From IMG/VR virus record IMGVR_UViG_2713896776_000007, positions 1-22,230 of that record: 22,230 nucleotides of DNA. One strand, written 5' to 3'. The stretch comes from a virus (lineage: Duplodnaviria > Heunggongvirae > Uroviricota > Caudoviricetes). Positions within the stretch are counted from its first letter, which is position 1, and every line of letters begins with the position of its first letter. Positions 1 to 20,459 of this stretch are shown one piece after another. The position numbers and the translations under genes are program-made. Below the pieces are notes generated by a model. That model was not told where the DNA came from. It saw only the letters and a list, made by a program, of their open reading frames with translations, and searched no databases.

Positions 1-270
1 ATGGAAAATCTACTTTTTGTGATGTGTTGGATTAAAGATCATCATGTGATGTCATTAGCTTTTGGCGTCTTATCTGCAATTTTATGGATTAAATCTGCTA
101 CAGCAAAAGTTGAGTTAGGCAAAAAAATTGTCATGGTTACGTATGAAGATCCCGAACTTAACGTGAATCTCCATGATTTCTTCGCCACTGCGCGGCTTCA
201 ATCTAAGTACAATTCATTTGCAGCATTGTCTGCAGCAGCAACCGCGCTATTCCAGATTATTGGTTTGTAA
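1..270 (+). CDS. hypothetical small membrane protein, possibly 5'-truncated by the window edge
   Basis: The ORF is open from base 1. It has two hydrophobic helices (VMSLAFGVLSAILWI and FAALSAAATALFQIIGL). It is AT-rich like the adjacent rnlAB genes and convergent with rnlB. I recognise no family. Confidence 0.3.
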   Translation: MENLLFVMCWIKDHHVMSLAFGVLSAILWIKSATAKVELGKKIVMVTYEDPELNVNLHDFFATARLQSKYNSFAALSAAATALFQIIGL

Positions 271-407
271 TGCTTACCAGCCCCAAATTAATCAATACCC
301 AGTGGTATTAGCAATGTCCATTTCAAGTACATACGTTCTTAAGACATTTGGGCACTGTCATGTCTGTCGGGGAGGAGGTTAAAATCCTCTCGTGCAAAAT
401 TTCTTAG

Positions 408-770
408 CTAGAGAATACAAAGAACATCATCTGGTGTTAACACAGAGTCTTCTACGTACTCAGGGTGGTTACGTAATACATCTCTCTGATGTCTCAAGAT
501 CTGCGCTGGAATTTCTTGCTCATCCACAATTTTGGCAGTATCCAGCAAAATACTGCCACACCTTATTTCCAGCGAAACAAAGCGATTCCACTCTGGACCA
601 TTAGAACACAAAAGGTCAAACAAAACCTCACCTGTAGCCTGTGAATTGCCCAGTATAACAGAAAGCCTCTTCTCGATTTCGTGAACTGAAGTCAAGGGGT
701 TCTCGTAGCCAGTCGCCATAACGACGGCAATGAGAGCCCCTGAGACGTTAACACCTGTTATTTCAAACAA
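408..770 (-). CDS. rnlB: RnlB-type antitoxin
   Basis: The 120-aa translation (MFEITGVNVSGALIAVVMATGYENPL...LFDLLCSNGPEWNRF...LRNHPEY) matches E. coli K-12 RnlB as I recall it. It overlaps the rnlA stop by 8 nt. The start is TTG, preceded by AAGGA. Confidence 0.85.
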   Translation of the reverse strand: MFEITGVNVSGALIAVVMATGYENPLTSVHEIEKRLSVILGNSQATGEVLFDLLCSNGPEWNRFVSLEIRCGSILLDTAKIVDEQEIPAQILRHQRDVLRNHPEYVEDSVLTPDDVLCIL

Positions 771-1833
771 TATACAAATCCTTAATAATTCCCCATGCCT
801 GTCTGGCCTTAGTCATCAGTCGTGCCATGTCAGAAACCATACGGCTTGTGTCGACAACTATCTCCATATGAAACAGGCCATGACGTTCTCTGTTAAAGAA
901 AGTATAGGCATCATTAATGGTCTTAACCTTAGCTGACGATAAATTGCATCCAAATTGTTGTTTCAGAATAAATTCACTCCCAATTTTATCAAAATAAGGC
1001 CCGAAACCATCCTGCGTGATTGGCATGCCATATCGGTACATTGTTGATTTAAGTACTCCCTCAACTGAACGTAATTCAGGATACAACAACATACAGTAAT
1101 CGGGTAAATCGGGGGCGGCGAGTTTAACACACAGCCCAGAAACGAGCAATTTTTCAACATTCTTATGCAATAGTGGGTACGCATCCCCCATTTCACACTC
1201 TAGATGTGAGCGAGCAACTTCTTTCTGAACTATATACGCTTTGCCATCATCCTGACGAATGAGAACTTTTTCCAGTCCTTGTAAATCGAGTAGCTCTGAC
1301 AAGTTGAATATAAACACTCTATAACATGACAATGGACGCCCTTGTATTTGTAGTGTTCCATTTCTGTGATGCAGACTAACTGTCAACTCATCCTGAAATT
1401 CTGGCGAATGAATTTTCCACACCGTTGTATGAGTGTTCCGTAAGTATTCGTAAAATTGTATATGTGGCTGCTCTGCTGAGAGCTGAAGTACAGATAAAAC
1501 GTTCGCTTCAACGAACCCTTGTAACACCATATTTACCTGTTCAAATTCTGCAGGATTGATGGTTTCATAGAGATCATCAGCCAACTCTTTTCCAAGATTA
1601 TGATTAGCTCCTGTTTGATACTGGACTGTAGACGTCCCTCCGTTATTATAGAAAATGTTAACAGTTGCCAAAGCTTCTCCTGGTTTAGCAAACACAACCC
1701 GAAGTCCTGCTCTTGCACCAGGCATTGGTCCAATTGAATGGACGGAATAGTTTTTATTTTCAATAAATGCCCTAGACGTAGCCTCAATAGTTGTCCGATC
1801 TAAATTTAAATTAGTGTAGTTCCTGACTGTCAT
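763..1833 (-). CDS. rnlA: RnlA (RNase LS) type II toxin endoribonuclease
   Basis: From M38 of the ORF (MTVRNYTNLNLD...) the 356-aa product is collinear with K-12 RnlA, which is 357 aa. Shared motifs include FIENKNYS.QSIGPMPG.RAGLRVVF, LQIQGRPLSCYRVF.FNL, LVSGLCVKLAAPDLPDYCMLLYPELR and AWGIIKDLYIV. The ATG is at 1831-1833. I treat the upstream 37 codons as read-through. Confidence 0.9.
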   Translation of the reverse strand: MTVRNYTNLNLDRTTIEATSRAFIENKNYSVHSIGPMPGARAGLRVVFAKPGEALATVNIFYNNGGTSTVQYQTGANHNLGKELADDLYETINPAEFEQVNMVLQGFVEANVLSVLQLSAEQPHIQFYEYLRNTHTTVWKIHSPEFQDELTVSLHHRNGTLQIQGRPLSCYRVFIFNLSELLDLQGLEKVLIRQDDGKAYIVQKEVARSHLECEMGDAYPLLHKNVEKLLVSGLCVKLAAPDLPDYCMLLYPELRSVEGVLKSTMYRYGMPITQDGFGPYFDKIGSEFILKQQFGCNLSSAKVKTINDAYTFFNRERHGLFHMEIVVDTSRMVSDMARLMTKARQAWGIIKDLYIV

Positions 1834-1967
1834 TTGCTTAACCCTATAAAAAACTTTAGCAAACTCTACAATATAGCCCCTCTTTAGTCTAATCAGGCGC
1901 TGTATCCTGAAATCGGGTACCGATAATATCCCTCCTGCAGCCATGTGTTGGTGTTAACAAGATACTG

Positions 1968-2255
1968 TGTATCAATTGAATCCGTCAGATTGCAAAAGTT
2001 GATGCCTCTTTCGCGCAGTTCCTCCACCAGCACGACAAGATGCCGCATACTGCGCCTCAGTCGATCCAGTTTCCAGACCACCAGCGTATCACCTGCCGAT
2101 AATGTCCTGAGCAGTTTTTTCAGTCCCGGCCTTTCGGACTTTGTACCGCTTATCTTGTCTTCAAAAATCAGCTCGCATCCTGCACAGTTCAGCGCATTAC
2201 GTTGTAGATCTGTGTTCTGGTCATTTGTTGACACACGTACATAGCCAATAAGCAT
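1968..2255 (-). pseudogene. pin: Pin/Gin/Cin-family serine DNA invertase, N-terminal 96 codons only (3' half deleted)
   Basis: MLIGYVRVSTNDQNTDLQRNALNCAGCELIFEDKISGTKSERPGLKKLLRTLSAGDTLVVWKLDRL.RSMRHLVVLVEELRERGINF..LTDSIDT is nearly identical to e14 Pin residues 1-96 as I recall them. After that the frame runs into unrelated AT-rich sequence (QYLVNTNTWLQEG...). The C-terminal dimer helix and HTH domain are absent. There is also a G-to-R change in the DRLGR motif. Confidence 0.9.
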
Positions 2256-2309
2256 GGTAGATCTCCCTGACAAAAGCAGGAATGATGCCATTTGCGCGTT
2301 ATTTCTGCA

Positions 2310-2335
2310 TTTTCATAAACGTTGGTTTGGGAGAA
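2310..2335. repeat. 26-bp Din-family crossover site (gix/pix-like), left
   Basis: The site is ttttcataaacgTTggtttgggagaa. Its reverse complement, ttctcccaaaccAAcgtttatgaaaa, shares the first 14 nt and the central AA core with the site at 4213-4238. It has the 12-2-12 layout of hix/gix/cix/pix sites. Confidence 0.85.
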
Positions 2336-2815
2336 GGCTCTGCATTACCGGTTGGGGTGCCTGTTCCGTGGCCTTCAGCCACTCCGCCAACAGGCTGGCT
2401 GAAATGCAATGGTGCGGCTTTTTCTGCTGAAGAATACCCGGAACTGGCAAAGGCTTACCCGACCAATAAATTGCCTGATTTACGCGGTGAATTTATTCGT
2501 GGCTGGGATGACGGACGTGGAGTGGATAACGGAAGGGGATTATTAACGCTTCAGGACGGTGCGATTGTCAGTCATAACCACTATTGGGGAATCTGGACTT
2601 CACGAACTAACGACCAGACTCTGGAAAGTTTTACAGGCACCACGATTTTAAAACAAATCACGCCCCTGTCTCCGGCCATTGACTTCGATAATTACCCAAT
2701 TCCCAACCCGGCTATTACAGAGGGTGGTGTTGTTGCGGCAACGACTAAACCTGCTGGTGCGAATGAAACACGCCCACGAAATGTCGCTTTTAACTATATT
2801 GTGAGGGCTGCATAA
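2321..2815 (+). CDS. silent alternative tail-fibre C-terminal cassette (Sv'-like, tail-collar domain), with no start of its own
   Basis: VGLGEGSALPVGVPVPWPSATPPTGWLKCNGAAFSAEEYPELAKAYPTNKLPDLRGEFIRGWDDGRG is a typical phage tail-collar motif. The frame begins inside the crossover site. The MMPFARYF... N-terminus in the ORF track is probably not real. Confidence 0.75.
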   Translation, partial: VGLGEGSALPVGVPVPWPSATPPTGWLKCNGAAFSAEEYPELAKAYPTNKLPDLRGEFIRGWDDGRGVDNGRGLLTLQDGAIVSHNHYWGIWTSRTNDQTLESFTGTTILKQITPLSPAIDFDNYPIPNPAITEGGVVAATTKPAGANETRPRNVAFNYIVRAA

Positions 2816-3417
2816 TGAATAACGCAGAATTAAACAGTGAATTAATTGCCACTATGGCAGGAGAAATTACTGTTTATAACTTTGATGTCATGAGTCGGGA
2901 ATATATTTCAGCTTCAACTGAATATCTTGCTATTGGTGTCGGCATTCCGGCATATTCCTGTTTAGATGCCCCAGGCGCATACAAAGCTGGTTATGCAATC
3001 TGCCGTTCTGCAGATTTTAACTCATGGGAATATGTGCCAGACCATCGCGGTGAAACGGTCTATAGCACCGAAACAGGAGAATCAAAAGAAATCACCGCTC
3101 CGGGTGATTACCCTGAAAATACAACCACTATCGCCCCATTAACGCCATATGATAAATGGGATGGTGAGAAATGGGTGACGGATACCGAGGCACAGCATAG
3201 CGCCGCAGTAGATGCAGCAGAAGCACAGCGCCAGTCGCTGATTGATACTGCAATGGCGTCCATCAGTCTGATTCAACTGAAATTGCGGGCCGGACGTAAA
3301 CTGACGCCGGCAGAAACAACCCGGCTTAACGCTGTGCTGGATTACATTGAGGCGGTGACGGCAACAGATACCAGCACCGCGCCGGATGTCATCTGGCCTG
3401 AACTGCCGGAGGCGTAG
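2815..3417 (+). CDS. tfa: tail fibre assembly protein (Tfa/U'-like), partner of the silent cassette
   Basis: The 200-aa product is nearly collinear with K-12 TfaE as I recall it (MNN.ELNSELIAT..G.ITVYN...CRSADFNSWEYVPDHRGETVYST.TGESKEI.APGDYPENTTTIAPL.PYDKWDGEKWVTDTEAQH...DTSTAPDVIWPELPE). Its ATG overlaps the cassette stop (TAATG). Confidence 0.85.
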   Translation: MNNAELNSELIATMAGEITVYNFDVMSREYISASTEYLAIGVGIPAYSCLDAPGAYKAGYAICRSADFNSWEYVPDHRGETVYSTETGESKEITAPGDYPENTTTIAPLTPYDKWDGEKWVTDTEAQHSAAVDAAEAQRQSLIDTAMASISLIQLKLRAGRKLTPAETTRLNAVLDYIEAVTATDTSTAPDVIWPELPEA

Positions 3418-3832
3418 GCCATTCAATATCTGGTGCACTGGAGGTATCAACCAGCTCCAGTGCATCCAGATAATCCAGCCACAAATTATATTGCGCCAGT
3501 TCCTCACCTTTCAGACGACCAATAGCGGCTTTACCGGGCCATTGCTTACTGTTCATGTATTCGTTGGCCTGGTTAATTAGTAGCTGTCTTTCTGATTCAG
3601 TAATTTCAATAAGCTCTTCATGCGTGGGTGGAGGAATATCTGCCCACGCAGGCAGCCCATCATCTCCGGCAATACGGATTTTTCCTTGTGGCGGTTCAGC
3701 CATAAACTCACTGATAATATTCTGATTTACTTCCTTAGCGTCTGATAAATCCCATCCCTCTGATTTATATTTATCAATCATATCCACAGGAAAAAAAGCA
3801 TTATGCCTTGCGCTATAAACATATTCGTTCAT
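3389..3832 (-). CDS. tfa: tail fibre assembly protein (Tfa/U-like), partner of the expressed fibre
   Basis: It has the C-terminal Tfa signature (NLWLDYLDALELVDTSSAPDIEWPTPP). I chose the ATG at 3830-3832 because GGGTGA lies 5 nt upstream. The ORF track starts at a GTG at 3841. Confidence 0.8.
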   Translation of the reverse strand: MNEYVYSARHNAFFPVDMIDKYKSEGWDLSDAKEVNQNIISEFMAEPPQGKIRIAGDDGLPAWADIPPPTHEELIEITESERQLLINQANEYMNSKQWPGKAAIGRLKGEELAQYNLWLDYLDALELVDTSSAPDIEWPTPPAVQAR

Positions 3833-3852
3833 ATAAATCACCCTGAATAAAA

Positions 3853-4515
3853 TTACTCACCAACAGCCCACCAACTGTAATTCATCGATACCGTGTCGCT
3901 GGTTGATGACGTTCTGTAAGCAGAATTAAAACCGGTTAACGTTGGGTCTTCTGCCGTCATCACGAACCCTCGCCCAGCGCCTAAAGGCGCACCGCCATCA
4001 CCAGAATGAGTAAGCATGGCGCAGTCCGCTTTTTTGGGGAAAGGGATGCTGAATGTAATTCTCATTGTTTGCGTCGATAATGTCGGCGTAACCGCACCTC
4101 GACCATATTGCAGGATTTTACCGTTGGGTAATTTCATCCATCCATCACCACTGGCAAAAGAAGCCATGTCCGGTATCTGATTTTCCCCTGTCCCCACATC
4201 CCGTTTTGCCGCTTCTCCCAAACCAAGGTTTTCGAGAGCCGTTTTCACCGTGCCGTCCGATTTGATATCGCCAAACGGATTCTTGCGGCTTAACAGCAGC
4301 GCGCGAAGTGCGGTAAGCAACTGGTCATGCCTCCCCTTCTCCAGGCTGGTACCGGATGCCTCCACCACGCTGCAAAGCTCCTCCTGCAACATGTCAAAGT
4401 AGTCATCATCCAGATCGGTGGCAGGTGTGCCGGTCTGGGGGTTACCACGGGTAAAACCGTTCTTACCCGCGCCGAACTTATCCTTCTGCGCGGTTTTCGT
4501 GTCTATACGATGCAT
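3853..4515 (-). CDS. tail fibre protein in the currently expressed configuration (constant N-terminus plus variable C-terminus)
   Basis: The N-terminus ([46 protein letters not shown]) is the conserved prophage tail-fibre N-terminal domain. ENLGLGE (aa 95-101) is encoded by the crossover site. The C-terminus has the GENQIPDM...[10 protein letters not shown] motif. Confidence 0.85.
4213..4238. repeat. 26-bp Din-family crossover site, right
   Basis: The site is ttctcccaaaccAAggttttcgagag. It is inverted relative to 2310-2335 and has the same AA core dinucleotide. Confidence 0.85.
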
Positions 4516-4518
4516 GGA

Positions 4519-5103
4519 TTACTCCGGATATTTAAAAATTACGTAGGTATGCGACGGGCAGAGTTTGTTAAGCACACACTCGACTACGGTGTCGCCCCAG
4601 ATACGCAGTGCGGAATCACAGGGATCGCCACATGTCATCCAGGTGGTGTTGGTGGCGGCTGGCATGTTGACCTGCCAGTAATACCGCCATTCCGGCGCAT
4701 TCACCGCGTCAGTACAGGCAGATGAGCAGGTGAACGTGCTTTTGTCGTATCGCGTGATGGTGGCGTCTGGTCTGCCCAGGGCAGCAAGCTGTGCAAGGTA
4801 AAAATCCTCATTGATGCCGCCCGCCAGATTAACCTTCGCATCCAGCCGTTGCTGACGCTGGCGAAGGGTCTGCGTCCCTGCCGGAATACATTCATCCGGC
4901 AGGCCGCACAGACGCTCCCAGCGATTTATCAGTTCGGTGGTGGTGCGCGGATCCAGCTCCCGCATCAGGGCATCCGCACGCTGATGAACACGGGTTAATG
5001 AAGGTGCCGCACCGGCAATCGCCGGATCGCTGGCTGACCACGCCGGACCGGGCGGCAACAGTGCCGATAACAGGCGGATGTAATCATCGTTTGTCACGTC
5101 CAT
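4519..5103 (-). CDS. Mu gp48 / YmfQ-like tail protein (DUF2313)
   Basis: [22 protein letters not shown]... is the typical DUF2313 N-terminus. Its position between baseplate J and the fibre gene matches Mu and e14. Confidence 0.8.
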
Positions 5104-6152
5104 GAAATCGTCCCCAGTACCGCCAGTTCGTTTTTCGCAATGGAAATATTGTCTGCCGGTGCAAGCAACTGATGGCTGTATTCCCCGTTCGCACCGGAAA
5201 TCGCCTCACTGATACGCGATACCTTCAGTTCTCCCTGCGGATAACCATCACGCAGCAGGAACGAACGCAACTCCGCGGTAATGGCAGCCCGTATTTCCGG
5301 TGTGTCCGGCGTCACGCGGATATGAAAATCCACCGTATGCGCCACCGGCCTGAACACATACAAATCAGAGCCTGCCACCGGGGCCAGAGGCCCGATATGT
5401 TGTCTTGCCGCCGTTTCCGTTGATTCTTCCGGAATGGGATTAATCAGGTCACTGCTGGCAATCATCACACCGACAGTTCCCGTTCCCATCCAGTGACGGT
5501 ATGTCCATGCGCGGGTAATGCCGGGCACTTCTTTAGCCCAGACGACATAGTCCCCGTCAGCCCCGCCCTGAAGCGTCCAGTAATACCGCTCAATGACGCG
5601 GGCGCGCCACGTTTCCAGATCTTCAGTATCGAATCCGCCAGTCAGGGTATCTGCAACACCGGAAGACGGCAGACCATTCACCGGCGTGACCAGGATTAAT
5701 GCCGTACCGTCGTCAGCGTTACCGACCGCGCCTGCACTTGAGCAAGTGATCGGCACGCGCAGGACACCACCGGAGCTGGTTGCATCAGCAGTTGCCGTGT
5801 ACTGAACCAGGTCAGCGCGCTGAATCACGCTCCCGGCGGTCACCTTCAGGCCATCGCTGACACCTTCCCAGCGCATATACCCGCTGGCAGCCGTGGCCCC
5901 CTTGCGCGGACACCGTTTCATCGCAGCATGTCGCGCCAGCCAGGACTCATCGCACAGGTCAGGCAGCATGTTCATTGCCAGATAATCGATGTAACCGTAA
6001 ACCGTATGCAGCGCCGCCGCATACACCTTTGCCCGCACGTCTTCATCCATGCGCCGGAGCGTGTCGCTGACGTCCAGCCTGGCGAATAAATCGTTACGGA
6101 GCATACTGATATTTTCTGCCAGCGTCGGGCGCTGAAATTCACTGTCCGCCAT
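5094..6152 (-). CDS. baseplate J-like protein (Mu gp47 / JayE-like)
   Basis: It is 352 aa. Its size and synteny fit, and it overlaps both neighbours. It resembles baseplate J-family sequences. Confidence 0.8.
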
Positions 6153-6567
6153 GCGTTATCGCACTCCACAGATCATCAAAAGAAATCATTACCGGTCCGT
6201 CACGACGCCAGAGGGTGATACTGTTACCCAGCTCATTAATCCCGGTGCGGCGGATATCCAGATCAATACGGGACACCACGCCGTCATCAATCATCCATTG
6301 CAGGCATTCGCGGATATACCCCCTTACCGTCTGCACCAGCTGATTGGTCAGTTTGCTGCGCTGAAGCAGCCACAGTCGGGAGCCGTAACGGTCATTCTGT
6401 ACCGCAGGCCAGGTATCCCCCCACCATCCCATCGGGACGTCGGCGTTGTCATCAGGCTCCGCCCGCCGCCAGGTAAACATGGAAATCACCACGGCGCGGG
6501 TCAGCGGATCCAGCGGTGCGCTGGCGCAGGTGCGTTTACCGTTCACCGTCAGCCACAGTTCCATCAT
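6139..6567 (-). CDS. Mu gp46-family baseplate protein
   Basis: It is 142 aa with a GWWGDTW...GSRLW motif typical of the GP46 family, and it is in the syntenic position. Confidence 0.75.
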   Translation of the reverse strand: MMELWLTVNGKRTCASAPLDPLTRAVVISMFTWRRAEPDDNADVPMGWWGDTWPAVQNDRYGSRLWLLQRSKLTNQLVQTVRGYIRECLQWMIDDGVVSRIDLDIRRTGINELGNSITLWRRDGPVMISFDDLWSAITHGGQ

Positions 6568-7112
6568 GCCTCCATCGCTTTATCAGGTTTGTCGGTGTTA
6601 CTGCCCTGACCGTTCTCTCTGTGACGATGCCCGTTATAGGCAAGCCGCATCGCTGACATGGTAGTGCCGCCGGAGTCGCACAGGTCTTTCACCTGTCCGG
6701 TCACTTCAAGGTCCATTTCAAAACGTGCTCTGGGCGCATTGCGAAACGTGATCGTTTTACCTGCACCGTCCACCACGATCCCCTCCCGGGTCAGCGTCAC
6801 AGACTGCCCCTGATCGTCATAGACAGCCACCTCACCCGTCTGCAGCCCTTTCAGGCGGTAGCGCCGGTCCGACACCGTAACAACCACCGCATGAGAACGG
6901 TCGCCATCCGGAAACAACACCACCGCTTCCGCACCGCTGTTTGCCCTTGCGGTAAAACCGTAGGGTTCAAGATGTTCAACCCCGGCTTTGGGTTCACCGG
7001 CAATCAGGGACACATCCACGGTCTGACATTTCGTGGCGGCGCTGATACTTTTCACCACTGCCCGCCCAATCAGGCCGAGAAGTTGTCGCTGCATGGCTTC
7101 AATCGTCCTCAT
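6564..7112 (-). CDS. Mu gp45-like baseplate assembly/spike protein
   Basis: It is 182 aa with an LEPYGFTARANSGAEAVVLFPDGDRSHAVVV motif typical of the Mu Gp45 / gpV family. Its start overlaps the upstream stop by 1 nt. Confidence 0.8.
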   Translation of the reverse strand: MRTIEAMQRQLLGLIGRAVVKSISAATKCQTVDVSLIAGEPKAGVEHLEPYGFTARANSGAEAVVLFPDGDRSHAVVVTVSDRRYRLKGLQTGEVAVYDDQGQSVTLTREGIVVDGAGKTITFRNAPRARFEMDLEVTGQVKDLCDSGGTTMSAMRLAYNGHRHRENGQGSNTDKPDKAMEA

Positions 7113-8191
7113 CAGAACGGGTCCTCCTGTACTCTGGCTTTTTTCTTTTTCTGCGCGCCGGGGGCATCGGGTTCAGGCAGATAAGCATCAGGCGGGCCGA
7201 CACGGATTTCCGTCAGGGTGCCGTTCTGGTCCTGAGTAAACGTGACTTCCGAAACAAGCAGTTCGGTATTGTCAAAACCACAGACCGGATCAAAGACAAT
7301 CACCCGCTGGTTGGGCTGCCACAGCGTACCGTTACCCTGTCGCCAGCCCTGCACCACATAGGTGGTTTCATCCGTCCGCGCCGCCCGTTGCCGGGCTTCA
7401 AAGTCAGCACGCGCAATACAGCCAGCCCCCGTGGCCTGCCCTGTCTGCCTGATATACATCGGACGGTAACGGGCAATAAATGCGTCCTCTGTGCGGGCCC
7501 GCAGCGCGGTGGTGGTGGCCTCACCGAAATCATCGTCGTTTCCGGCACGCTGCCCCGCCACCTGGTAAACTGAAAACCGCTCCCGGATACTCTTCTCCGT
7601 ATCGCAGGAAAGGATGTTTTCCCCAAGTACCAGCGCGGTATGTGCCCGCGTTGAGCCAATACCGCCAATCACCAGCCTGCCGTGCGGATCGTCGTAAGCC
7701 AGTGCCTGCTGCTGACCGAGTATTTTGTTGATTACCTCAATCACCGTTTCACCGTGATCAGGCTGAACATCAGGAATAACACCCGACGGCGCACCGCTGT
7801 TCACCACCTCAATGCCGAAAGGCGCAGCAAGCGCCTGCGCAATCTGCACCAGCGAGCGTCCGTTAAACTGTGTCGGTTCGGCTGCACAGTCAATCAGGTC
7901 AGCCGTCAGACTACGTCCGGCAATACCGGTGCTGACCGAACGGGCATCGTAACGAACGGGCGTCGCCTCCACCCAGCCGGTGATCACCAGCTCATCACCA
8001 ATCAGCACCTCCACTTTTGAACCGTTTTTAATGCGCGGCTGAAGCGTGGTGATACCCTCATCACCCGGCCACTGGCGGGTGATCTCCACACTGAAATCCC
8101 GCGCCAGCCGTTCAATACCGGCACCGATGCGCACCGATGTCCAGCCATTCCACTCCCGGCCATTTACCCGTAGCGTGACATTGTCGTTCAT
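7112..8191 (-). CDS. Mu P (gp44) / gpD-like baseplate hub protein
   Basis: It is 359 aa and sits between N and gp45 as in Mu. Its start overlaps the stop of the N gene. Confidence 0.75.
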   Translation of the reverse strand: MNDNVTLRVNGREWNGWTSVRIGAGIERLARDFSVEITRQWPGDEGITTLQPRIKNGSKVEVLIGDELVITGWVEATPVRYDARSVSTGIAGRSLTADLIDCAAEPTQFNGRSLVQIAQALAAPFGIEVVNSGAPSGVIPDVQPDHGETVIEVINKILGQQQALAYDDPHGRLVIGGIGSTRAHTALVLGENILSCDTEKSIRERFSVYQVAGQRAGNDDDFGEATTTALRARTEDAFIARYRPMYIRQTGQATGAGCIARADFEARQRAARTDETTYVVQGWRQGNGTLWQPNQRVIVFDPVCGFDNTELLVSEVTFTQDQNGTLTEIRVGPPDAYLPEPDAPGAQKKKKARVQEDPF

Positions 8192-9564
8192 TGCACTGGC
8201 ACCTTCAGAGGGATCACCGGCACAAAGCCGGGATGCGTAATGGCATTACGCCGGATAATGTCCGCGTCACGCGCCGCGTTATCAAACCAGGTCGCCGCCA
8301 GCACCAGCGCGGGTAAAACCTCATCCGGTGTGCGCTGAATGATCCGAGCAGACTGTTCAAGGCGCGTGTTGATATCCGCATTCAGATCTGCTTTCACCCG
8401 GCGCAGCGCCAGAAACAGCGCATCACTGGTTGTACGGGACAACTCCTTATCAATTGCCGTATTCAGTGTGTCGCGAATGTCGGTCAGTTCTTCCCACGTT
8501 GGCAGGTCAACCGTGTTTTTCACCGCCGGTGCATTGTTCAGTGCCGGATGCGTGACGGAAGGCCAGCCGGAGCTCTGCGCGGGTGTTGTTGACTGCCCCA
8601 CTGCGGCATTCTGCATCACCGCAGAAGTTGTTGGCGCAGGCAATCGGGTGACGGCATACGCCGCTTCGCTGATTGCGGTCGTACGAAGGATGCTGGCAAC
8701 CACGTTACGCTGCTGCGTCGCCGTGGCGGTGGTTTTACTGTCCGTTTTCCAGACGCCGCGCGGTTGCAGATCGCTGCCGAGGCTGACACCGGAAAGCGTT
8801 TTGATCATGGTGACCAGGTCGCTGGCGTTACCATAAAGGCGTTTCCCGGTACGCCACATTTTCTGCACCTGCTCAACGAAATTTTTTCCTGACGATGGCG
8901 GCGGCAGAAGTACCGAGATATCCCCCTGCAACAGCCTGGCAGCATCCGATACGGCAGAATCCACCACTTTCATCGCATCAGAAACATACCCCAGCATTGT
9001 GCTGGCATTACCGACGACGTCGTTCTGCACAAAATCCGCCACGCCATCGATACTGAAACCACTGAAACTGTCACTGATGCAGTCATCCAGTGCAGAACAG
9101 GATGACATCAGCGTCTGCGCCGTCGCCGCACCTGATGTGGGGTAAGAGAGTTCTCCCGCTTCGACAAACTTCAGGTCAAAGCGGACAATACGCCCTTCAC
9201 TTTTCGATGTGCTGACCCGAACTTCCCCGTCAACACAGACTTTCAGCTCACCGTATGTCGGATGGACAAGCGTGCCGGGACCGGGTTTATTCAGCGCATC
9301 AATCAGGCGATCGCGCTGGTCAAAGCAGTCATCTCCCACCACATAAGCCGTGATGGACGGGCGGAAAGTAACTTTTCCCAGATCTTCGGTATAGGGCTTG
9401 TCGCGGTTCGGGTATTCGTGTGTTTCCACACGGCGACCGGTTCCCGCACTTTCTTCTTCAACCTTAAACGATACGCCGCGAAATGACGCGTCCTGAAGTC
9501 TGTCACGCCAGCCTGAAGACGACGAAAGTAATGAAGGTCGGGTGGGAAATGAGGATAAATCCAT
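8188..9564 (-). CDS. DNA circularisation protein N (Mu gp43-like)
   Basis: The N-terminal motif ASFRGVSFKVEEESAGTGRRVETHEYPNRDKPYTEDLG is characteristic of the DNA_circ_N domain. It follows the tape measure gene as in Mu. Confidence 0.85.
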   Translation of the reverse strand: MDLSSFPTRPSLLSSSSGWRDRLQDASFRGVSFKVEEESAGTGRRVETHEYPNRDKPYTEDLGKVTFRPSITAYVVGDDCFDQRDRLIDALNKPGPGTLVHPTYGELKVCVDGEVRVSTSKSEGRIVRFDLKFVEAGELSYPTSGAATAQTLMSSCSALDDCISDSFSGFSIDGVADFVQNDVVGNASTMLGYVSDAMKVVDSAVSDAARLLQGDISVLLPPPSSGKNFVEQVQKMWRTGKRLYGNASDLVTMIKTLSGVSLGSDLQPRGVWKTDSKTTATATQQRNVVASILRTTAISEAAYAVTRLPAPTTSAVMQNAAVGQSTTPAQSSGWPSVTHPALNNAPAVKNTVDLPTWEELTDIRDTLNTAIDKELSRTTSDALFLALRRVKADLNADINTRLEQSARIIQRTPDEVLPALVLAATWFDNAARDADIIRRNAITHPGFVPVIPLKVPVQ

Positions 9565-9588
9565 AGACTGACCTCAAAAAGGACTGCG

Positions 9589-11496
9589 TTATCGTGGAAA
9601 ACGAAAAGGGGAATACCCCACATCGTGCGTGATTTTCATCAGGGGATCGGCTTTGTCCGGTACATCAATTATCTTCATACCTGGCGGAGCATTCTCGAAC
9701 GTGACTTTCAGCTCGCTGTGCTGTGTCATGGAAGAAGATGGATTCAACAGCGGAACATTGGGTTTGTACTGACTCAGGCTGGCCTGATATTGCTCGTACT
9801 CTTTACGATCAAAAAAAGGCGTCCAGTCTGAAGCCAGAAACAGCCCTTTATTATCCAGCCAGTTAACCGTATCTTCAGGAACAACACTTTCCAGAGTATC
9901 TTTAACCGGCTCATACATCAGGGTTCCCAGAAAACCATATACCCCGGCCTTCCCGATAAAGCCGCGGCCTTTCCCCATCAATCCCGTTTCTGCCGATACC
10001 TTCCCCAGCGTACGCATCTCTCTGGTCACTGCGGTAATGGATTTGGTAACGTCAGCAACCCATTTGGTTGCCATAAACAGGGCAATCGCTTTCAGAACAG
10101 TTTCCCATCCCCCCATCGCCTGCGCCGTTTCATCCATCACGTGCCAGACTTTTTTTATGACAGGACCTACGGTTTCCCAGTTATCAATAATGAGGTAAGC
10201 GCCACCAACCAGAAGAGCAATCAGCCCCTTAGCAGGCGTCATATTCATCACACCGCCGAGAACTTTCATAATTCTGGACAAAGAGCCTGCAGCGGCTCCC
10301 ACCGTCAGTAAGGCCAGACCGATTTTAGCAATGGTCTTAACGAGCTCCGGGTTTTCACGGACAAACGTTCTCACTTCCTCAAGGAGCGGTTTTACCGCTT
10401 CAAGACCATCATTAACCTCAGGAAGAAACGTTTCCCCCAGCGTGGAAGAAATGGCATCAAGTTGATTTTGCAGAAGTAAAAGCTGGTTTTCCGTCGTCGC
10501 TGCCCTCGAAGCATATTCCTTCTGCATCGAACTGCCATACTGCTGGGAATCCGCAACCCGCCTGAAGTTGGTACGCAACAAATCAAGGTTAGTCAGCAGA
10601 GGTGCTATCGCGCCCAGAGACTCTTTCCCGAACAGGGCATTCAGCACAGCTGCCCGTTTTTCTTTAGGCACTTTAGCCATCGCATCCAGTACAGATAGCA
10701 TGGTGCCCCGGGCATCTTTCTGCATATCAGCAGCTAATTTCTTCGGATTGATCCGCAGAAAACGCAATGCCTGTTTCTGCGATTTTGTCGCAGAATTTCC
10801 CGCGGTCAGGGAAAGCATGAAGTTCTTGATCCCTGTGGCGGCAATTTCTGACTCCACGCCCATCCCGGCAATGGTTGCCCCCATTGCCGCGATTTCGCCG
10901 GAAGCCACACCTGCAACACCACCTAAAGGACCAATACGCGTAACAATATCGGAGATTTTCTTCGCGTTCGCCGGGCCGGTATTACCAAGGTAGTTGATTT
11001 TGTCAGCCAGCCCGGCCACTTCATCCTGCGTCATATTAAACGCAGTACGCCACTGGGCCATCATCTGCCCGGACTCTTCAGCCGTGGTATCAAAGGCCAC
11101 GCCCATCTTCACCGCATCAGTGGCAAACTGCATCAGTTCATCACGTGCAATCCCGGCCTGACCACCCGCCGCCACGATTTCAGCGATACCTTCCGCCGAC
11201 ATAGGCAGTTCGGTTGACAGGTCACGCACCTGCTCCGTCATGGCCTTAAACGCATCCGGCGTATCCAGACCGTCCACCACTTTGCGGACATCAGCCATCT
11301 TCGATTCAAGGGTGATGGCTGATTTTACAGGGAGTACCAGTGCCCCCATTATTGCAGTACCCGCCCCGGCAGCGCCCAGAGCAAGGCTGGAGACTTCTTT
11401 CTGAAATCCCTTAAGCTGACGCTGCATACCTTTAAGCGGGCCGGATAGCCTGTCAACGGCGGTGATGATGGCTTTCAGCTGAAAATTATCAGCCAT
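9589..11496 (-). CDS. tail tape measure protein (635 aa), cognate to this tail module
   Basis: It has a TP901-type core (SAEGIAEIVAAGGQAGI...INYLGNTGPANAKKISD), hydrophobic central helices, and the expected position after the chaperone gene. Confidence 0.9.
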   Translation of the reverse strand: MADNFQLKAIITAVDRLSGPLKGMQRQLKGFQKEVSSLALGAAGAGTAIMGALVLPVKSAITLESKMADVRKVVDGLDTPDAFKAMTEQVRDLSTELPMSAEGIAEIVAAGGQAGIARDELMQFATDAVKMGVAFDTTAEESGQMMAQWRTAFNMTQDEVAGLADKINYLGNTGPANAKKISDIVTRIGPLGGVAGVASGEIAAMGATIAGMGVESEIAATGIKNFMLSLTAGNSATKSQKQALRFLRINPKKLAADMQKDARGTMLSVLDAMAKVPKEKRAAVLNALFGKESLGAIAPLLTNLDLLRTNFRRVADSQQYGSSMQKEYASRAATTENQLLLLQNQLDAISSTLGETFLPEVNDGLEAVKPLLEEVRTFVRENPELVKTIAKIGLALLTVGAAAGSLSRIMKVLGGVMNMTPAKGLIALLVGGAYLIIDNWETVGPVIKKVWHVMDETAQAMGGWETVLKAIALFMATKWVADVTKSITAVTREMRTLGKVSAETGLMGKGRGFIGKAGVYGFLGTLMYEPVKDTLESVVPEDTVNWLDNKGLFLASDWTPFFDRKEYEQYQASLSQYKPNVPLLNPSSSMTQHSELKVTFENAPPGMKIIDVPDKADPLMKITHDVGYSPFRFPR

Positions 11497-11904
11497 GCTT
11501 CATCTCCTCATTTATACGGACGGCCTCTGCCTCCAGATCAGCAAAGTGGGAAATAGCCGTCCGGCGAAGTTCAAGGGGGTTTAATTTCCAGAACCACGCG
11601 ACATTGTAGAATCGCTTCCGGAGGTCTCTTCCGTCTCCAAGCCGGTAAAAAAACGCATTACAATCATGCCTGCCTTGAAAATATCCAGCTTCGTCATCTG
11701 CGCTGCAGACGAGCGCGGGATCCCGGCCAGAAGCGGGATATATTTCAGCGCCACCTGACTGTCCATTTTCATACCACCATCAGGCGAAACAGAGAAAGGG
11801 AACCCCAGCGCCTCAATCTCGTCATACGTAGGCTCACGTATTTCCAGCACATGCAGTGTTTCTTTGTGGGCGATGATCGGTTTTTTAAGTACAAGCTCAA
11901 TCAC
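11489..11904 (-). CDS. tail assembly chaperone, predicted -1 frameshift product (G-T analogue)
   Basis: On the coding strand the zero frame reads CGT TTT TTT ACC. The -1 frame is open from the T7 run to a TGA that overlaps the tape-measure ATG (ATGGCTGA). It adds ...YRLGDGRDLRKRFYNVAWFWKLNPLELRRTAISHFADLEAEAVRINEEMKHG. Confidence 0.6.
11581..11904 (-). CDS. tail assembly chaperone (Mu gp41-like), zero-frame product
   Basis: It is 107 aa and sits between the tube and tape measure genes. It contains a slippery run near its 3' end. Confidence 0.7.
   Translation of the reverse strand: MIELVLKKPIIAHKETLHVLEIREPTYDEIEALGFPFSVSPDGGMKMDSQVALKYIPLLAGIPRSSAAQMTKLDIFKAGMIVMRFFTGLETEETSGSDSTMSRGSGN
11647..11653 (-). 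promoter_or_regulatory. slippery heptamer T TTT TTT for a programmed -1 frameshift
   Basis: There are seven A on the + strand, hence seven T on the coding strand, in X XXY YYZ register with the chaperone frame. Confidence 0.6.
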
Positions 11905-12257
11905 TGGTAATCCCCTTCTTCACCGTGGAACTCAAGATCGACCGTGCCTTCTTCGGCATTATGGTTCGCTTCGCCGTGCAGCCAGGCAGACGACAGTACA
12001 TAGACCTGACCGTTCGCCAGCTCGGCAGTGATGGTCATCTCATCAGACGAGGTGATTTTGCTCACCGGAAAATTCTTCGGCACCTTGAAGGTCCCTTTGA
12101 CATAAGGCGCACGGTGAGTTTCCTTGCGGTCCACTGAACCGTCCAGGCCGATGATGTCATCATTGACCGTCCTGTTCATGGGCACCTCAATGCCGCCGGT
12201 CAGCGATAGCTGCTGACCGTCAATTTTGAAATAACAGGTTCCCCCGATACGGGCCAT
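11901..12257 (-). CDS. tail tube protein (Mu M / gp40-like)
   Basis: It is 118 aa (MARIGGTCYFKIDGQQLSLTGG...) and directly follows the sheath gene with overlapping stop and start. Confidence 0.8.
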   Translation of the reverse strand: MARIGGTCYFKIDGQQLSLTGGIEVPMNRTVNDDIIGLDGSVDRKETHRAPYVKGTFKVPKNFPVSKITSSDEMTITAELANGQVYVLSSAWLHGEANHNAEEGTVDLEFHGEEGDYQ

Positions 12258-13753
12258 TATGCGGACTCCTCTGAATACTGAAGACGGAACTGGTTAACCA
12301 CGGCAAAGACACGCAACTGGTTAACATAGTCAGGCGGGAACAGCGTGTTCAGGCGGTTCGGATCGCTGGCATCACGCTCCACAACTAGGTACTGCTTAAA
12401 CAGTGCGTAGTTTTCCACGATCCCCGCACGCTCAAGCTGACGGTAGGTTGCCAGCAGTTCCCCTTTGATCACCGCCGGGGTGACAATCGCCTGACCGGGA
12501 CCAAAGCGGGTACCGTCACTGGCAAGCTTGTGACGCCCGTACTTACTGGTAATGACGGATTTCAGTTTGCGCAGTACATACGCGCTGGTATGCAGGGTCT
12601 CACTGTCTAGGTAGCTGTTATCCGCAACCCCGTAAGCGTTTTTCCTGTACGTGGTGACATCACGCTGAATGCGCAGTACCCCGCTTTCGACATACGCCGT
12701 TGCCACGCCATGAGACAGCAGGGTCTGTTGTTCGGTCATCGTGAACCGTTTCCCCTTCGGCGCAGGCAGCATACCCACCAGCTCACCGGTCTGCGTGGGA
12801 CGTGCCGGATCGTTGCGAATAAACACCGCTGCGCGGGCGGTACGGCTTGCCGCCAGTTCGTCGGCAGGCGTCTGGGTCTCTTTTTCGTACCCCGCCAGGG
12901 TAATGTGCTGCTGGTTAAACTGGTCACCTGCGGTCACCAGTTCTGACAGCGTGCCGATCTTTGCCGTATACACATGACCATACAGCTGACGCGCATAGCT
13001 CCAGCGACCGCTGGTATCGTTCATCTCGGTCACCAGCGTGTTAACGGAGGCCGTGTCGTTGAACGGCAGGCCGATATAATCAAACGGCTCATCCGCCATT
13101 GCAGCCACCGCGCCGGTGAGAACCGGAGCACCCGTTCCGGCGGTACCCGTCGCCACGGCAATCTGTACGCCCGCTGGCAGCACTTCGCCCCCACCAAAGC
13201 CGTAGTAATTGAGGCTGACAGGAATTTCATTCCCGCAAAGCCCCTTATGACGCGCGGTCAGTGTGACCACGCCTGCCGAAGATGAAGCCGTAAACGGCAG
13301 GGCCGGAACGGCATTGATGGCATCTTTGATACTGCTGGCAATCGTCGTGACGTTATCGCCGTTGGTCACCGGAGCCTGCACGCGGGTACGTCCCACATAG
13401 ACATTCACCGTGCCGGTTTCGGTTGCCGCCCCGGTCACCGTCAGCGTAACCGTTGCCGCCGCGCCTGTGGATTCAGGAACGGCAATCACATACAGCTCAC
13501 CAAACGGGTCGGTCTGGCGATAAGCCTCGACCATACGCGCCAGCTGACTTCCCGCACCACAAATCTGGCGTGCATAGTCTGCCGACGGCATCAGTACCAG
13601 ACTGTTGGCAACAATCTCTGCACCGTTATTGGCATGACCAATCAGCAGCGATGCTCCGCTGTCCTGTGCAGTATTCGCCGCCGAGTTATCCATTTCCGCA
13701 TAAAACAACGGAACCAGCGTATTCGACGGAATGGTGTTAAAGCTTATCGTCAT
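12257..13753 (-). CDS. contractile tail sheath protein (Mu L / gp39-like)
   Basis: It is 498 aa. Its size, position and sequence character match Mu-type sheath proteins. Confidence 0.85.
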   Translation of the reverse strand: MTISFNTIPSNTLVPLFYAEMDNSAANTAQDSGASLLIGHANNGAEIVANSLVLMPSADYARQICGAGSQLARMVEAYRQTDPFGELYVIAVPESTGAAATVTLTVTGAATETGTVNVYVGRTRVQAPVTNGDNVTTIASSIKDAINAVPALPFTASSSAGVVTLTARHKGLCGNEIPVSLNYYGFGGGEVLPAGVQIAVATGTAGTGAPVLTGAVAAMADEPFDYIGLPFNDTASVNTLVTEMNDTSGRWSYARQLYGHVYTAKIGTLSELVTAGDQFNQQHITLAGYEKETQTPADELAASRTARAAVFIRNDPARPTQTGELVGMLPAPKGKRFTMTEQQTLLSHGVATAYVESGVLRIQRDVTTYRKNAYGVADNSYLDSETLHTSAYVLRKLKSVITSKYGRHKLASDGTRFGPGQAIVTPAVIKGELLATYRQLERAGIVENYALFKQYLVVERDASDPNRLNTLFPPDYVNQLRVFAVVNQFRLQYSEESA

Positions 13754-13907
13754 CGGTATTCACCTTTTTATTCACGCGCCGGATATCACCCGCTGCTTCA
13801 CGGCGCAGCCAGTAGTTGTTCTCGTCAACATTTCGCCCTTCGGCGGGCAAAAGGTCGCCGCGGGCAGGGTCAGGAACTGACCGCCCTTTAACAGGTTTCA
13901 CAAACAT
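13737..13907 (-). CDS. DUF2635-like small tail-module protein (Mu gp38 position), not in the ORF track
   Basis: My manual translation is MFVKPVKGRSVPDPARGDLLPAEGRNVDENNYWLRREAAGDIRRVNKKVNTDDDKL (56 aa). The pattern VKP..G..V.DP....LP.EG..V....YW.RR...GD is the DUF2635 signature as I recall it. It overlaps the sheath start by 17 nt. Confidence 0.65.
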   Translation of the reverse strand: MFVKPVKGRSVPDPARGDLLPAEGRNVDENNYWLRREAAGDIRRVNKKVNTDDDKL

Positions 13908-13915
13908 GAAGATTC

Positions 13916-14476
13916 TCAGGAAGGAAGGGTTATTTCGGTGTGATGTTCGATATCGCCGTCAGGCCCGTTACCGGGATCGAGATAATCAACATCAATCGCC
14001 AGCGTTCGCAGTTCATCCAGACTGTTCAGGTCATCCTGCTGGCGGGTATCGTCTTCAGTCAGCTCGCTGATGACCGAAAAATCGAACTGATAAATCAGCT
14101 CATGACGATTCAGATCCAGCAGCGTGCCGCCGTCATAGGTAATCGGGTTACCGCACGCCTCCGGGTTCCAGCCCAGCAGAGCCTTAAAGAGCATCTGCCG
14201 GACATCGTCCACCACATCATACGAGGCAAACTGACCGCGCTCATCACGCCCGTTACTCAGTATGACAACCACGGAGAAACCCTCTTTCAGCTCCTGCCAG
14301 TAGTCGGTCTGGCTTTTGTTTTCTCCCGGAGAATCATCACCCGGTACAACATATGCCGCCGGGAGTTTCAGCTTTCCGACCTCCGGCAGATTTTTGAACT
14401 GGGCCGCGCCTGCAACCCGGTTTTCAAAATACGGACAGCGGGCACGCAGTGCAGCAATAACAGGCGTCAGTTTCAT
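13916..14476 (-). CDS. Mu gp37-like tail completion/terminator-region protein (DUF1834-like)
   Basis: It is 186 aa and lies upstream of DUF2635 and the sheath gene, as in Mu-type tail clusters. The family assignment is from memory of the general sequence character only. Confidence 0.6.
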   Translation of the reverse strand: MKLTPVIAALRARCPYFENRVAGAAQFKNLPEVGKLKLPAAYVVPGDDSPGENKSQTDYWQELKEGFSVVVILSNGRDERGQFASYDVVDDVRQMLFKALLGWNPEACGNPITYDGGTLLDLNRHELIYQFDFSVISELTEDDTRQQDDLNSLDELRTLAIDVDYLDPGNGPDGDIEHHTEITLPS

Positions 14477-14568
14477 CTGTGTCGTCGCTCCGGCTTCAGT
14501 GATTTACGCAATTCCCGCGCCAGAAAATAGCGTGTCCAGCTGCGGTTCTTTTCAAGAGTTTCCACCAT
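14473..14568 (-). pseudogene. 31-codon ORF, possibly the 3' remnant of a head-tail joining gene
   Basis: The ORF reads MVETLEKNRSWTRYFLARELRKSLKPERRHR and has an ATGA stop/start overlap with the gp37-like gene. The same frame stays open without an ATG up to about 14680. This suggests a truncated upstream gene at a mosaic joint. Confidence 0.3.
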
Positions 14569-14704
14569 GAAGTTATTACGTGGAGCCAGTCGCCAGCCGC
14601 TGCCACCGGATGCACCTGATCCACCGCGCGATAAATAAGCCGCAATCCGTGAGATAAATGGACACGGTGCGGCTTTTCAGATACTGCAAAGGAATTACAA
14701 ATTA

Positions 14705-17182: not shown

Positions 17183-17214
17183 GGTTCACTCCGGTAATGA
17201 GTGGTTCGGTGGCG

Positions 17215-17808
17215 TCATTCGGTCAGGGACAGGCCGCTGATTCCGGTAATCCCGGCAATTTCCTCGCTGACAGCCATCAGTTCACTTTCAAGCCCGGTAC
17301 GTTCGCTGACCAGCGCCGCAACGGTCTTACGGCGTTCTGCCAGTGACGGAAGTTTGTCATTGCCCCACACCACGCTTTTATCCTTCTTAAGCGCTTCGGT
17401 CAGGCGGGTGGCGACCACATCCGGGAAGAAAAAGCAGAGCTTGCGCATAACCGCCATCCCGGTATCAGCCGGGGAGATGTTTCCACCCAACCCCACCAGA
17501 CGGAACAGGCCGGAAATATCGCCGCTCTCATTCTCCAGATTGCCCCAGCGTTCGGCGTTCCCTTCACTGCCGGAACTGTTGCAGAGGACACGCTTGAATG
17601 ACTGATATTCTTCCTGCCCGAATCGCTCAATATATTCAGGAATGAAAGAACAGTAATCATTAAGCGATAAAGGCATATCCTGTAATGTGGTTATTTCGCC
17701 GTTAATTTCACTAATGCGGCGAGAGAGTTTTTCTTTCTGCTCATTCAGGGAGGCAAGATTATTTTTAACGGCGTTCAGTGCTTCGATAAGGGAAATAACT
17801 GGTTTCAT
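17215..17808 (-). CDS. hypothetical protein with coiled-coil ends (197 aa)
   Basis: It is a clean ORF whose start is 1 nt from the upstream stop. It is heptad-like at the N-terminus (LNAVKNNLASLNEQKEKLSRRISEINGEITTLQ) and at the C-terminus. I recognise no family, but a scaffold-like role is conceivable. Confidence 0.45.
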   Translation of the reverse strand: MKPVISLIEALNAVKNNLASLNEQKEKLSRRISEINGEITTLQDMPLSLNDYCSFIPEYIERFGQEEYQSFKRVLCNSSGSEGNAERWGNLENESGDISGLFRLVGLGGNISPADTGMAVMRKLCFFFPDVVATRLTEALKKDKSVVWGNDKLPSLAERRKTVAALVSERTGLESELMAVSEEIAGITGISGLSLTE

Positions 17809-17809
17809 T

Positions 17810-18424
17810 TTAATAACTCCAGATAAAAGGCGTGGTGAGTGTGAGTGCTTCGGAATAGGAGACGTTACAGGCTTCGCTTACATCCTTTATTAAAAGGTGC
17901 TGCGCTGCTCTCTGGCTGTCAGCTATGCCGTCGAACTCTGAGAAATAAACGTGTGATTCATTGTGACCAAAACAGACCGGGTAAGCGCTTTCCATAAATT
18001 CCACCTGCTCCAGCCCTTTAACGGCTGGCGGCTGTGAGCCGAGAAAACCGATATGGCGTAGATACCAAGCTCCGGTGCCTGCCGGGTTGCTGGCCTCGCC
18101 GGGCTTATAGAATGACGCAGATACTTTCCTGTAACGCCCTGAGCGCACCAGCCCCAGCAGGGTATCATCCGGTTTTACCAGTGCGAAAAGCCTGCCGTTC
18201 TTGCTTATCAGTCCGGTGGTTTCGCCATAGGCCGGGCTGTTACTGGCCGGATGCCCCAGACACAGCGGCGCACCGTAACCCGCGCTGCGATAGCCGTTAT
18301 AGGCCGCTGCCATGTTGTCGATATCCTCGTCGGAAAAGCTGATTTCCTGTCCCGCCATCGCGGTATGCGTTCCCGCCCGGAATATCTCAATCGTTTTCCA
18401 GTTGCCCAAATTAAGATTTGTCAT
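17810..18424 (-). CDS. GPO / Mu-I-like capsid protease-scaffold N-terminal domain protein (204 aa)
   Basis: The pattern W..IEIFRAG.HT...G.EISFSDEDIDNMAAAY........APLCLGH......AYGE...L...GRLFA.V.P.D.L..LV..G.Y..VSASFY...YL.H.GFLG..PPAVKGL..V.F parallels the P2 gpO and Mu I N-terminal domains as I recall them. This is remote similarity only. Confidence 0.5.
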   Translation of the reverse strand: MTNLNLGNWKTIEIFRAGTHTAMAGQEISFSDEDIDNMAAAYNGYRSAGYGAPLCLGHPASNSPAYGETTGLISKNGRLFALVKPDDTLLGLVRSGRYRKVSASFYKPGEASNPAGTGAWYLRHIGFLGSQPPAVKGLEQVEFMESAYPVCFGHNESHVYFSEFDGIADSQRAAQHLLIKDVSEACNVSYSEALTLTTPFIWSY

Positions 18425-18466
18425 TTACCTGTTCTCGGTTGTGATGTGTAAACAGTGCTTTGCTGC

Positions 18467-18823: not shown

Positions 18824-19022
18824 GACTATCACCCGTTGCAATATCAGTAATTCAGTCAGAAAAGGCTTTATAAAGCTTTACAGCGTGCGACTGGCGGTAA
18901 AGGCGAACCTTGACCGCAGCAAACCAGCCTGACGGCTTAGAAAGCGTTACAGCACCTTGTTAAAGTCAGTTAATAATATCGGGTGTGGGCGGGGATGTTT
19001 TTTAATGTACTTTAGATATGAA

Positions 19023-19046
19023 GAAGCCCCTCAGAGGAGGGGCTTC
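19023..19046 (-). terminator. hairpin terminator after the DUF3077-like gene
   Basis: It has a perfect 10-bp GC-rich stem (gaagcccctc / gaggggcttc) and a 4-nt loop, 17 nt after the stop. The downstream U-tract is weak (UUCAUAUCU). Confidence 0.5.
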
Positions 19047-19062
19047 GCGGGATTACGCCAGA

Positions 19063-20423: not shown

Positions 20424-20459
20424 ATTTAGTTACTAAAAAACAATAGCTTAAGGTATTTT

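Follow-up and report, generated by a model that had tools for sequence, protein, structure and literature searches.

Among the closest described counterparts of the locus considered here are the tail-fibre inversion modules of the e14 prophage and of phage Mu. In e14, the P segment (stfP/tfaP/tfaE/stfE) is followed by pinE and mcrA, and in Mu the G segment is followed by gin and com/mom. Prophages of the P2/P4 type carry defence or moron hotspots at their ends. The RnlA/RnlB toxin-antitoxin pair of E. coli K-12 resides in the element CP4-57 at ssrA. The subject of this analysis is a stretch of 22,230 nucleotides from a virus of the Caudoviricetes (IMG/VR record IMGVR_UViG_2713896776_000007, positions 1 to 22,230), the whole of which is referred to as the window. 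It shares with e14 and Mu the order of fibre genes, invertible segment, invertase, defence or modification cargo and prophage end, and it differs from both in that the invertase lacks codons 97-184, the cargo is RnlAB and the tail module is SfV-like. Window positions 1-2255 form the end nearest ssrA of a myovirus prophage of the SfV/e14 type, where an AT-rich cargo module of 2.3 kb (orf89, rnlB and rnlA) is fused to the 5′ stub of the tail-fibre invertase gene pin and takes the place of its 3′ half. Taken as a whole, the locus is very probably one in which an old RnlAB-pin junction shared with other genomes was imported into the end of an SfV/e14-type prophage, where the cis invertase is dead and the segment is still inverted by an invertase acting in trans.

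The pin end of the module is made up of the following features.

1893-2255, minus strand: truncated invertase open reading frame (ORF) of 120 amino acids, with 96 Pin codons (2255-1968) followed by 24 foreign codons to the stop

1963-1969: breakpoint of pin homology, after codon 96, from alignments with intact pinE and megablast limits at 1963/1965

2061-2115: homologous-recombination crossover interval inside the pin stub, located by the allele switch at informative sites

Residues 1-96 of the stub are 96.9% identical to PinE, and the catalytic Ser9 is present. The Pfam Resolvase match covers only profile positions 2-106 of 145, the stub is without helix E and the C-terminal helix-turn-helix DNA-binding domain, and it is annotated as a pseudogene in RefSeq genomes. 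A preliminary description of this DNA had ended the Pin homology after codon 96, at about 1968, and had reported no intact invertase in another frame. Both points are borne out by the alignments, which leave the breakpoint ambiguous within its interval through a 1-nt indel and 5 nt of microhomology, and by a tblastn search with full-length PinE, which matched residues 1-96 (E=7e-59) and did not find residues 97-184, the C-terminal half, in any frame of the whole 22-kb window. The cis invertase gene is non-functional and does not have full membership of the Din family. Substitutions in the stub that derive from the module are G67R, within the conserved DRLGR motif (2055-2057), and R88C and S89N (1989-1994), as would be expected for a decaying pseudogene or for relaxed constraint after truncation.

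The same junction was found in other E. coli genomes. Window positions 1-1962 are present at 99% identity or more in 74 of 5426 complete genomes, nearly at full length in 72 of these, and the cassette is carried in prophages of about 1.4% of complete E. coli genomes. Every module-bearing genome inspected has the identical pin/rnlA junction. The adjoining prophage is mostly lambdoid (gpJ, Lom, side tail fibre) and unrelated to that of the window, with the module found at ssrA in JJ1886, beside the lsr genes in 5CRE51 and at pao/yagU in VE-F5. In AHM8C212RI, the module is located at ssrA without any prophage. The whole 5′ stub and the crossover site are kept in five of the module-bearing genomes, and the others have an internal pin fragment extending to about 2178. 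A single module is joined to three different pin 5′ alleles, those of the window, 5CRE51 and JJ1886.

The stub of the window was compared site by site with the module allele and with the e14-type pinE alleles of CH458 and NWU_1. Positions 1970-2063 exhibit no mismatch to the module allele and eight to the e14-type alleles, over 94 sites. To the right of this, at 2064-2316, the stub differs from the CH458/NWU_1 e14-type allele at 6 of 253 sites, as against 18 of 253 from the 5CRE51 module allele. The informative sites follow the module allele at eight consecutive positions (1990-2061) and the e14-type allele at 13 of 14 (2115-2299). The shared junction and the chimeric stub therefore argue for a truncated junction that arose once and has moved by homologous recombination within pin, and the window prophage appears to have imported this junction ready-made through such an exchange. 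The junction itself would have originated in an illegitimate recombination event and would then have passed between unrelated prophages, with homology supplied on the right by the pin stub and on the left by the att/ssrA flank; the window prophage would have gained the module through the crossover at 2061-2115. The exchange seen here demonstrably draws on homology inside the invertase gene for one of its arms, which sets it apart from other prophage-end hotspots.

Adjacent to the stub is the inversion module proper, which consists of the following features.

2310-2335: left 26-bp crossover site, TTTTCATAAACG TT GGTTTGGGAGAA, an inverted repeat

4213-4238: right 26-bp crossover site, TTCTCCCAAACC AA GGTTTTCGAGAG, an inverted repeat

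2324-4224: invertible tail-fibre segment of about 1.9 kb, with Pfam matches

2282-2815, plus strand: silent Collar-type fibre C-terminus

3853-4515, minus strand: expressed gp53-like fibre C-terminus

2815-3417, plus strand: tfa gene

3389-3841, minus strand: second tfa gene

The two crossover sites are inverted relative to each other with matching central dinucleotides (TT/AA), and their sequence is that of the e14 sites, the two sets being practically identical. The left site contains the e14 P-segment site TTGGTTTGGGAGAAGG (sequence per PMC12529663). The inverted repeat is perfect over only about 15 nt. A terminator-like hairpin of 13 pairs with a T-rich run is present on the plus strand at 2276-2308, in the interval that separates the start codon of pin from the left crossover site.

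Both orientations of the segment were observed. In contigs L010 (Logan SRR25518317, four samples) and L013 (ENA ERZ27238074), positions 2317-4231 are in the opposite orientation to the window. Both contigs match the window at 100.000% identity in the flanks (1-2336 and 4212-12255), and the chimeric stub agrees in its private bases too. The sole two differences, at 2321 and 4227, are outer half-site bases left in place by an exchange at the central dinucleotide, and the end-point of the inversion in the left site falls between 2321 and 2324. The constant part of the fibre carries the gp53-like C-terminus in the window (220 amino acids) and the Collar-type C-terminus in L010 (260 amino acids), and both form complete ORFs. 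The window orientation is also found in three further contigs, including GCA_001309555.1. A second lineage, 97% related and with the same stub, exhibits the same pattern, with L012 and L011/L014 having 100% identical flanks on either side of an inverted 1848-bp segment. Since the opposite orientations are enclosed by identical flanks that include the truncated stub, inversion post-dates truncation, and the switch still inverts despite its dead cis invertase. The preliminary description had proposed that the acquisition event itself inactivated the host-range switch. This stands insofar as the cis invertase is dead and the import also removed the 3′ half of pin; it does not stand as an account of the event or of its outcome, as the junction appears to have been imported ready-made (about 72 genomes, chimeric stub) and the segment still flips in two lineages.

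The agent of inversion is most likely a Pin-family invertase encoded elsewhere in the genome. The 120-amino-acid stub protein was considered as the catalyst and rejected because it is without helix E and the DNA-binding domain, which makes an invertase from elsewhere the simplest agent. The Pin protein of e14 reportedly complements gin mutants of Mu. As a proxy for the supply of invertase, 1561 of the 5426 complete E. coli genomes contain a pinE-type 3′ half, and a second pin-like place was found in 5CRE51. Inversion in trans is described for PinQ (Qin) and PinR (rac), which invert the e14 P segment through the same repeat sequence (Kirigo et al. 2025, PMC12529663). The likeness to the window is that the fibre segment of one prophage is flipped by the invertases of other prophages; the difference is that K-12 has an intact cis pinE, whereas the cis gene of the window is truncated and both orientations occur nonetheless.

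The cargo attached to the stub is the RnlA/RnlB pair, encoded as follows.

408-770, minus strand: rnlB antitoxin gene, 120 amino acids, TTG start, Pfam RnlB_antitoxin (PF15933, E=3.5e-24)

763-1833, minus strand: rnlA toxin gene (HEPN endoribonuclease of the RNase LS family), 356 amino acids

1834-1880, minus strand: leader of rnlA with promoter-proximal DNA, in which homology to the sequence upstream of K-12 rnlA persists

The RnlA gene product matches four Pfam models above their cut-offs (PF19417, PF15935, PF19034 and PF18869), which represent the N-terminal, N-repeat and Dmd-binding/HEPN domains. It exhibits 71% identity to K-12 RnlA end to end over 357 amino acids, and RnlB exhibits 69% identity to K-12 RnlB over its full length. 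Comparison with solved structures placed RnlA with PDB entries 4i8o and 6y2p (E=8e-167). The HEPN motifs ELRSVEG and RERHGLFH align with R255/E258 and R318/H323, the HEPN catalytic residues of K-12 RnlA. At the nucleotide level, the match to K-12 is 72.9% and is confined to 424-1880, so that about 47 nt of K-12-like leader is kept, and the motif TATTGTAGAGTTT is conserved within it. The two genes overlap by 8 nt (ATTGTTTGA), and both the overlap and the TTG start are exactly as in K-12.

The CP4-57 pair of K-12 therefore resembles the window pair in its two-gene layout, TTG start, overlap, RnlA domains and HEPN residues, as well as in its residence in an element at ssrA. The window pair differs in being a divergent allele, with about 73% DNA identity within the stretch given above, in having orf89 and the pin stub as neighbours where K-12 has yfjM and yfjP, and in its location, which is the tail-fibre end of prophages of the SfV/e14 and lambdoid types. 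LsoA/LsoB of plasmid pO157 has a toxin fold family in common with the window RnlA and is far more distant. Membership of the LsoAB group was rejected, as LsoA (PDB 5hy3) matched at E=1e-13 against E=8e-167 for RnlA, and the pair is placed on the RnlAB branch. PADLOC returned no match for RnlA, RnlB or orf89; this is read as a gap in the library and not as counter-evidence because the Pfam, PDB and K-12 comparisons are unambiguous. Judged by their sequences, the window proteins qualify as true, orthologue-level relatives of RnlA and RnlB. The preliminary description had recognised the pair as RnlA/RnlB and had given the sizes of the two products, the TTG start, the 8-nt overlap and the residence of the K-12 pair in CP4-57, all of which agree with the present results. 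The poor alignment to K-12 that would have spoken against its identification was not seen, and the LsoA comparison that it called for gave the far weaker match.

By homology with K-12 RnlAB, the RnlA protein would be an endoribonuclease kept inactive by its labile antitoxin RnlB. A T4-like phage that shuts off host expression would cause RnlB to decay, and the freed RnlA would degrade mRNA and abort the infection unless the phage makes an inhibitor of the Dmd type. The window pair is presumed to have anti-phage activity of this kind.

To the left of rnlB and to the right of the rnlA leader, two further features complete the module.

1-270, plus strand: orf89, small hydrophobic protein of 89 amino acids, PHROG phrog_14357 (E=4.6e-33)

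1881-1962: spacer that separates the cassette from the pin breakpoint and has the identical sequence in every module-bearing genome

The orf89 gene product has no Pfam match. It is annotated as WP_000429347.1 and adjoins rnlB in every module-bearing genome inspected, and it might be a third component of the cassette or a separate moron. No homology of the spacer to the K-12 rnlA flanks or to pinE was found. The GC content is 40.9% in 1-1968, 48.1% in the pin stub and 54.5% in 2256-14616, in keeping with the AT-rich sequence that had been remarked upon to the left of the breakpoint. Contigs with the identical 120-amino-acid stub read leftwards as stub, rnlA, rnlB, orf89, about 300 bp, ssrA and smpB, and in the RefSeq annotation of JJ1886 and AHM8C212RI, 300 bp lie between orf89 and ssrA. 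The related prophage of NWU_1, which has an intact pinE, exhibits the same outer junction 153 bp from ssrA with two unrelated genes inside. From this order and from the NWU_1 outer junction, the cassette is therefore identified as att-proximal prophage cargo. In 5CRE51, where the module sits outside ssrA, its left end still retains about 27 nt from the 3′ end of that gene. The 153 bp between ssrA and the cargo (within L010:12400-12583, 145-328 bp to the left of window position 1) match the K-12 sequence to the right of CP4-57; this stretch is common to the NWU_1 prophage, and both a phage arm and chromosomal backbone were considered for it.

The position beyond pinE is a defence hotspot of SfV/e14-type prophages. 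It is bounded by the last structural module on one side and the attachment site on the other, and its cargo varies among syntenic relatives. Defence genes of sister prophages beyond an intact pinE are located as follows.

L002:1770-5403; L007:5907-6680; L008:5904-6677: defence cargo of sister prophages (Septu with PDC-S15; PD-T4-3)

In 81EVA, the slot holds Septu (PtuA E=1e-170, PtuB E=8e-33) together with a PDC-S15 FRG-domain protein, and in CH458 and 7784 it holds PD-T4-3, a GIY-YIG protein (E=2e-140). All three have an intact pinE, as does NWU_1, in which the two genes of the slot are unrelated to the cassette. The slot is occupied by mcrA in e14 and by com/mom in Mu, and in SfV its equivalent holds gtrA/B/V next to int. 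The gtr slot of SfV resembles that of the window in being a fixed place between the last tail gene and att with interchangeable cargo. The earlier suggestion of a cargo slot filled by different defence systems is thus supported by Septu, PDC-S15, PD-T4-3, McrA, com/mom and gtr in the relatives.

Other explanations of the locus were weighed against import followed by inversion in trans. It is highly improbable that the cassette was inserted locally into the pin gene of this prophage by an illegitimate event that froze the switch. The 3′ half of pin is indeed missing from the window, with nothing in its place, and the cassette is compositionally foreign; however, the identical junction is present in about 72 other genomes on unrelated prophages, the stub is a recombinant of the module allele and the local allele, and two orientations with identical flanks are found in two lineages. 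A little less improbable, though still unlikely, is an origin of the cassette as chromosomal or island DNA, or as the remnant of an older element at ssrA, which the prophage merely abuts at the pin breakpoint. Such an origin would fit the location of K-12 rnlAB in CP4-57, likewise at ssrA, the agreement of the 153 bp by ssrA with the chromosome of K-12 to the right of CP4-57, the prophage-free module at ssrA of AHM8C212RI and the lack of RnlA in the 50,697 sequenced phages. It does not account for the modules with an att-core-like left end that are found away from ssrA on lambdoid tails (pao/yagU in VE-F5, near lsr in 5CRE51), nor for the NWU_1 prophage, which has an intact pinE and the same outer junction 153 bp from ssrA with other cargo within, and the stub, which runs on into the inversion module without a break, is itself DNA of phage origin.

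The order of truncation and inversion could also be questioned, in that the orientations may predate the truncation, with the module recombined into each, or may stem from RecA activity or faulty assembly. Movement of the module by homologous recombination is demonstrable, and the trans invertase was not identified, no genome-confined search for it having been made. Even so, this explanation is unlikely, to about the same degree as an ssrA island, given that the flanks are 100.000% identical over 2.3 kb and 8.0 kb with the private chimeric-stub bases included, that a second lineage exhibits the same pattern and that several independent samples stand behind each orientation. The exchange also falls at the central dinucleotide of canonical 26-bp sites, and the perfect repeat of about 15 nt is judged too short to mislead short-read assemblers or to support efficient RecA recombination.

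Several observations count against the reading of import and continued inversion in trans, or against parts of it. A tblastn search of 50,697 deposited phage genomes (E cut-off 1e-10) found no RnlA homologue, and an insertion of 7.7 kb splits the SfV orf8 homologue of the window prophage at 14616/14617; because of these two findings, the cassette may mostly ride in defective prophages. The SfV-like prophage is itself probably defective, and "host-range switch" may therefore no longer describe the effect of the inversion for the cell. A simple sigma-70 and terminator scan of 1-2400 gave sites no more numerous than in shuffled controls and no convincing promoter upstream of rnlA; read-through from the co-oriented pin stub could contribute to rnlA transcription. 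For an allele that is 71% identical to the K-12 one, anti-phage function is only presumed from that of K-12 RnlAB. No intact invertase came to light for the genomes that carry the prophage, for which no genome-confined search was made, and the window has none by tblastn. In K-12, full deletion of pinE locks the P segment despite the presence of PinQ and PinR (PMC12529663), and service in trans is therefore not automatic.

This last result may be related to the structure of the invertase gene. In the Hin system, a Fis-bound enhancer of 65 bp is located inside the invertase gene, 99 bp from hixL (PMC3798978). Wild-type Hin is inactive without the enhancer, and Din invertases require the Fis-bound enhancer in cis (PMC3798978). 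The equivalent position in the window is the following.

About 2146-2211: predicted Fis-dependent recombinational enhancer, positional equivalent of the Hin enhancer

This stretch is kept in the stub and is nearly identical to K-12 pinE and Mu gin. The lock after pinE deletion in K-12 would then reflect the loss of the in-gene enhancer, which the 3′-truncated allele of the window would keep. We infer an enhancer role for the window stub on these grounds, as we do the identity of the trans invertase. It is possible, with rather less than an even chance, that the pin stub has two working roles, as a portable homology arm and as a Fis enhancer that keeps the orphan segment switchable by the invertases of other prophages. 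If this is true, the homology-arm role would let the RnlAB cassette hop between any prophages with a Pin-type invertase, and the enhancer role would explain why 3′-truncated pin alleles flip whereas the segment locks after complete deletion of K-12 pinE.

The remainder of the window was also characterised. Positions from about 2800 to 14616 encode a tail module of the Shigella SfV/SfI/SfII/SfIV type, which is about 97% identical over about 10 kb and has the e14-type inversion module at its end. A megablast search of the window against phages returned matches only from 2317 rightwards. The insertion block occupies 14617-22230 and runs about 140 bp past the window; it is also found at L023:9004-16750 and in L026-L031. 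Its products are a tape-measure-like protein of 825 amino acids, a Mor activator, a HicB-like protein, a member of the Mu Gp27 family and several proteins without assigned function, and no MuA/MuB-like transposase is among them. The block is 100% identical to an insertion that splits the lambdoid major capsid gene in E. coli AW1.7, and other genomes have it at six or more distinct positions in the chromosome. It begins with TG and ends with CA, and the AW1.7 copy is flanked by a direct repeat of 5-6 bp (AAGACA). It looks like a non-autonomous Mu-like transposable element.

The locus refines current understanding and does not overturn it, its RnlAB allele, its defence slot at the prophage end and its Din inversion module all being of known kinds. 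It adds a divergent and widely shared RnlAB allele to the defence cargo known from prophage ends. The two refinements concern the spread of the cassette through homology in the invertase stub and the continued inversion of an orphaned segment. The first provides a concrete sequence-level example of cargo spread by homologous recombination through a conserved phage gene, with the crossover visible in the stub. The second shows that a tail-fibre inversion switch is not frozen in nature when its cis invertase is lost, which fits recent evidence that the invertases of cryptic prophages service one another's segments.

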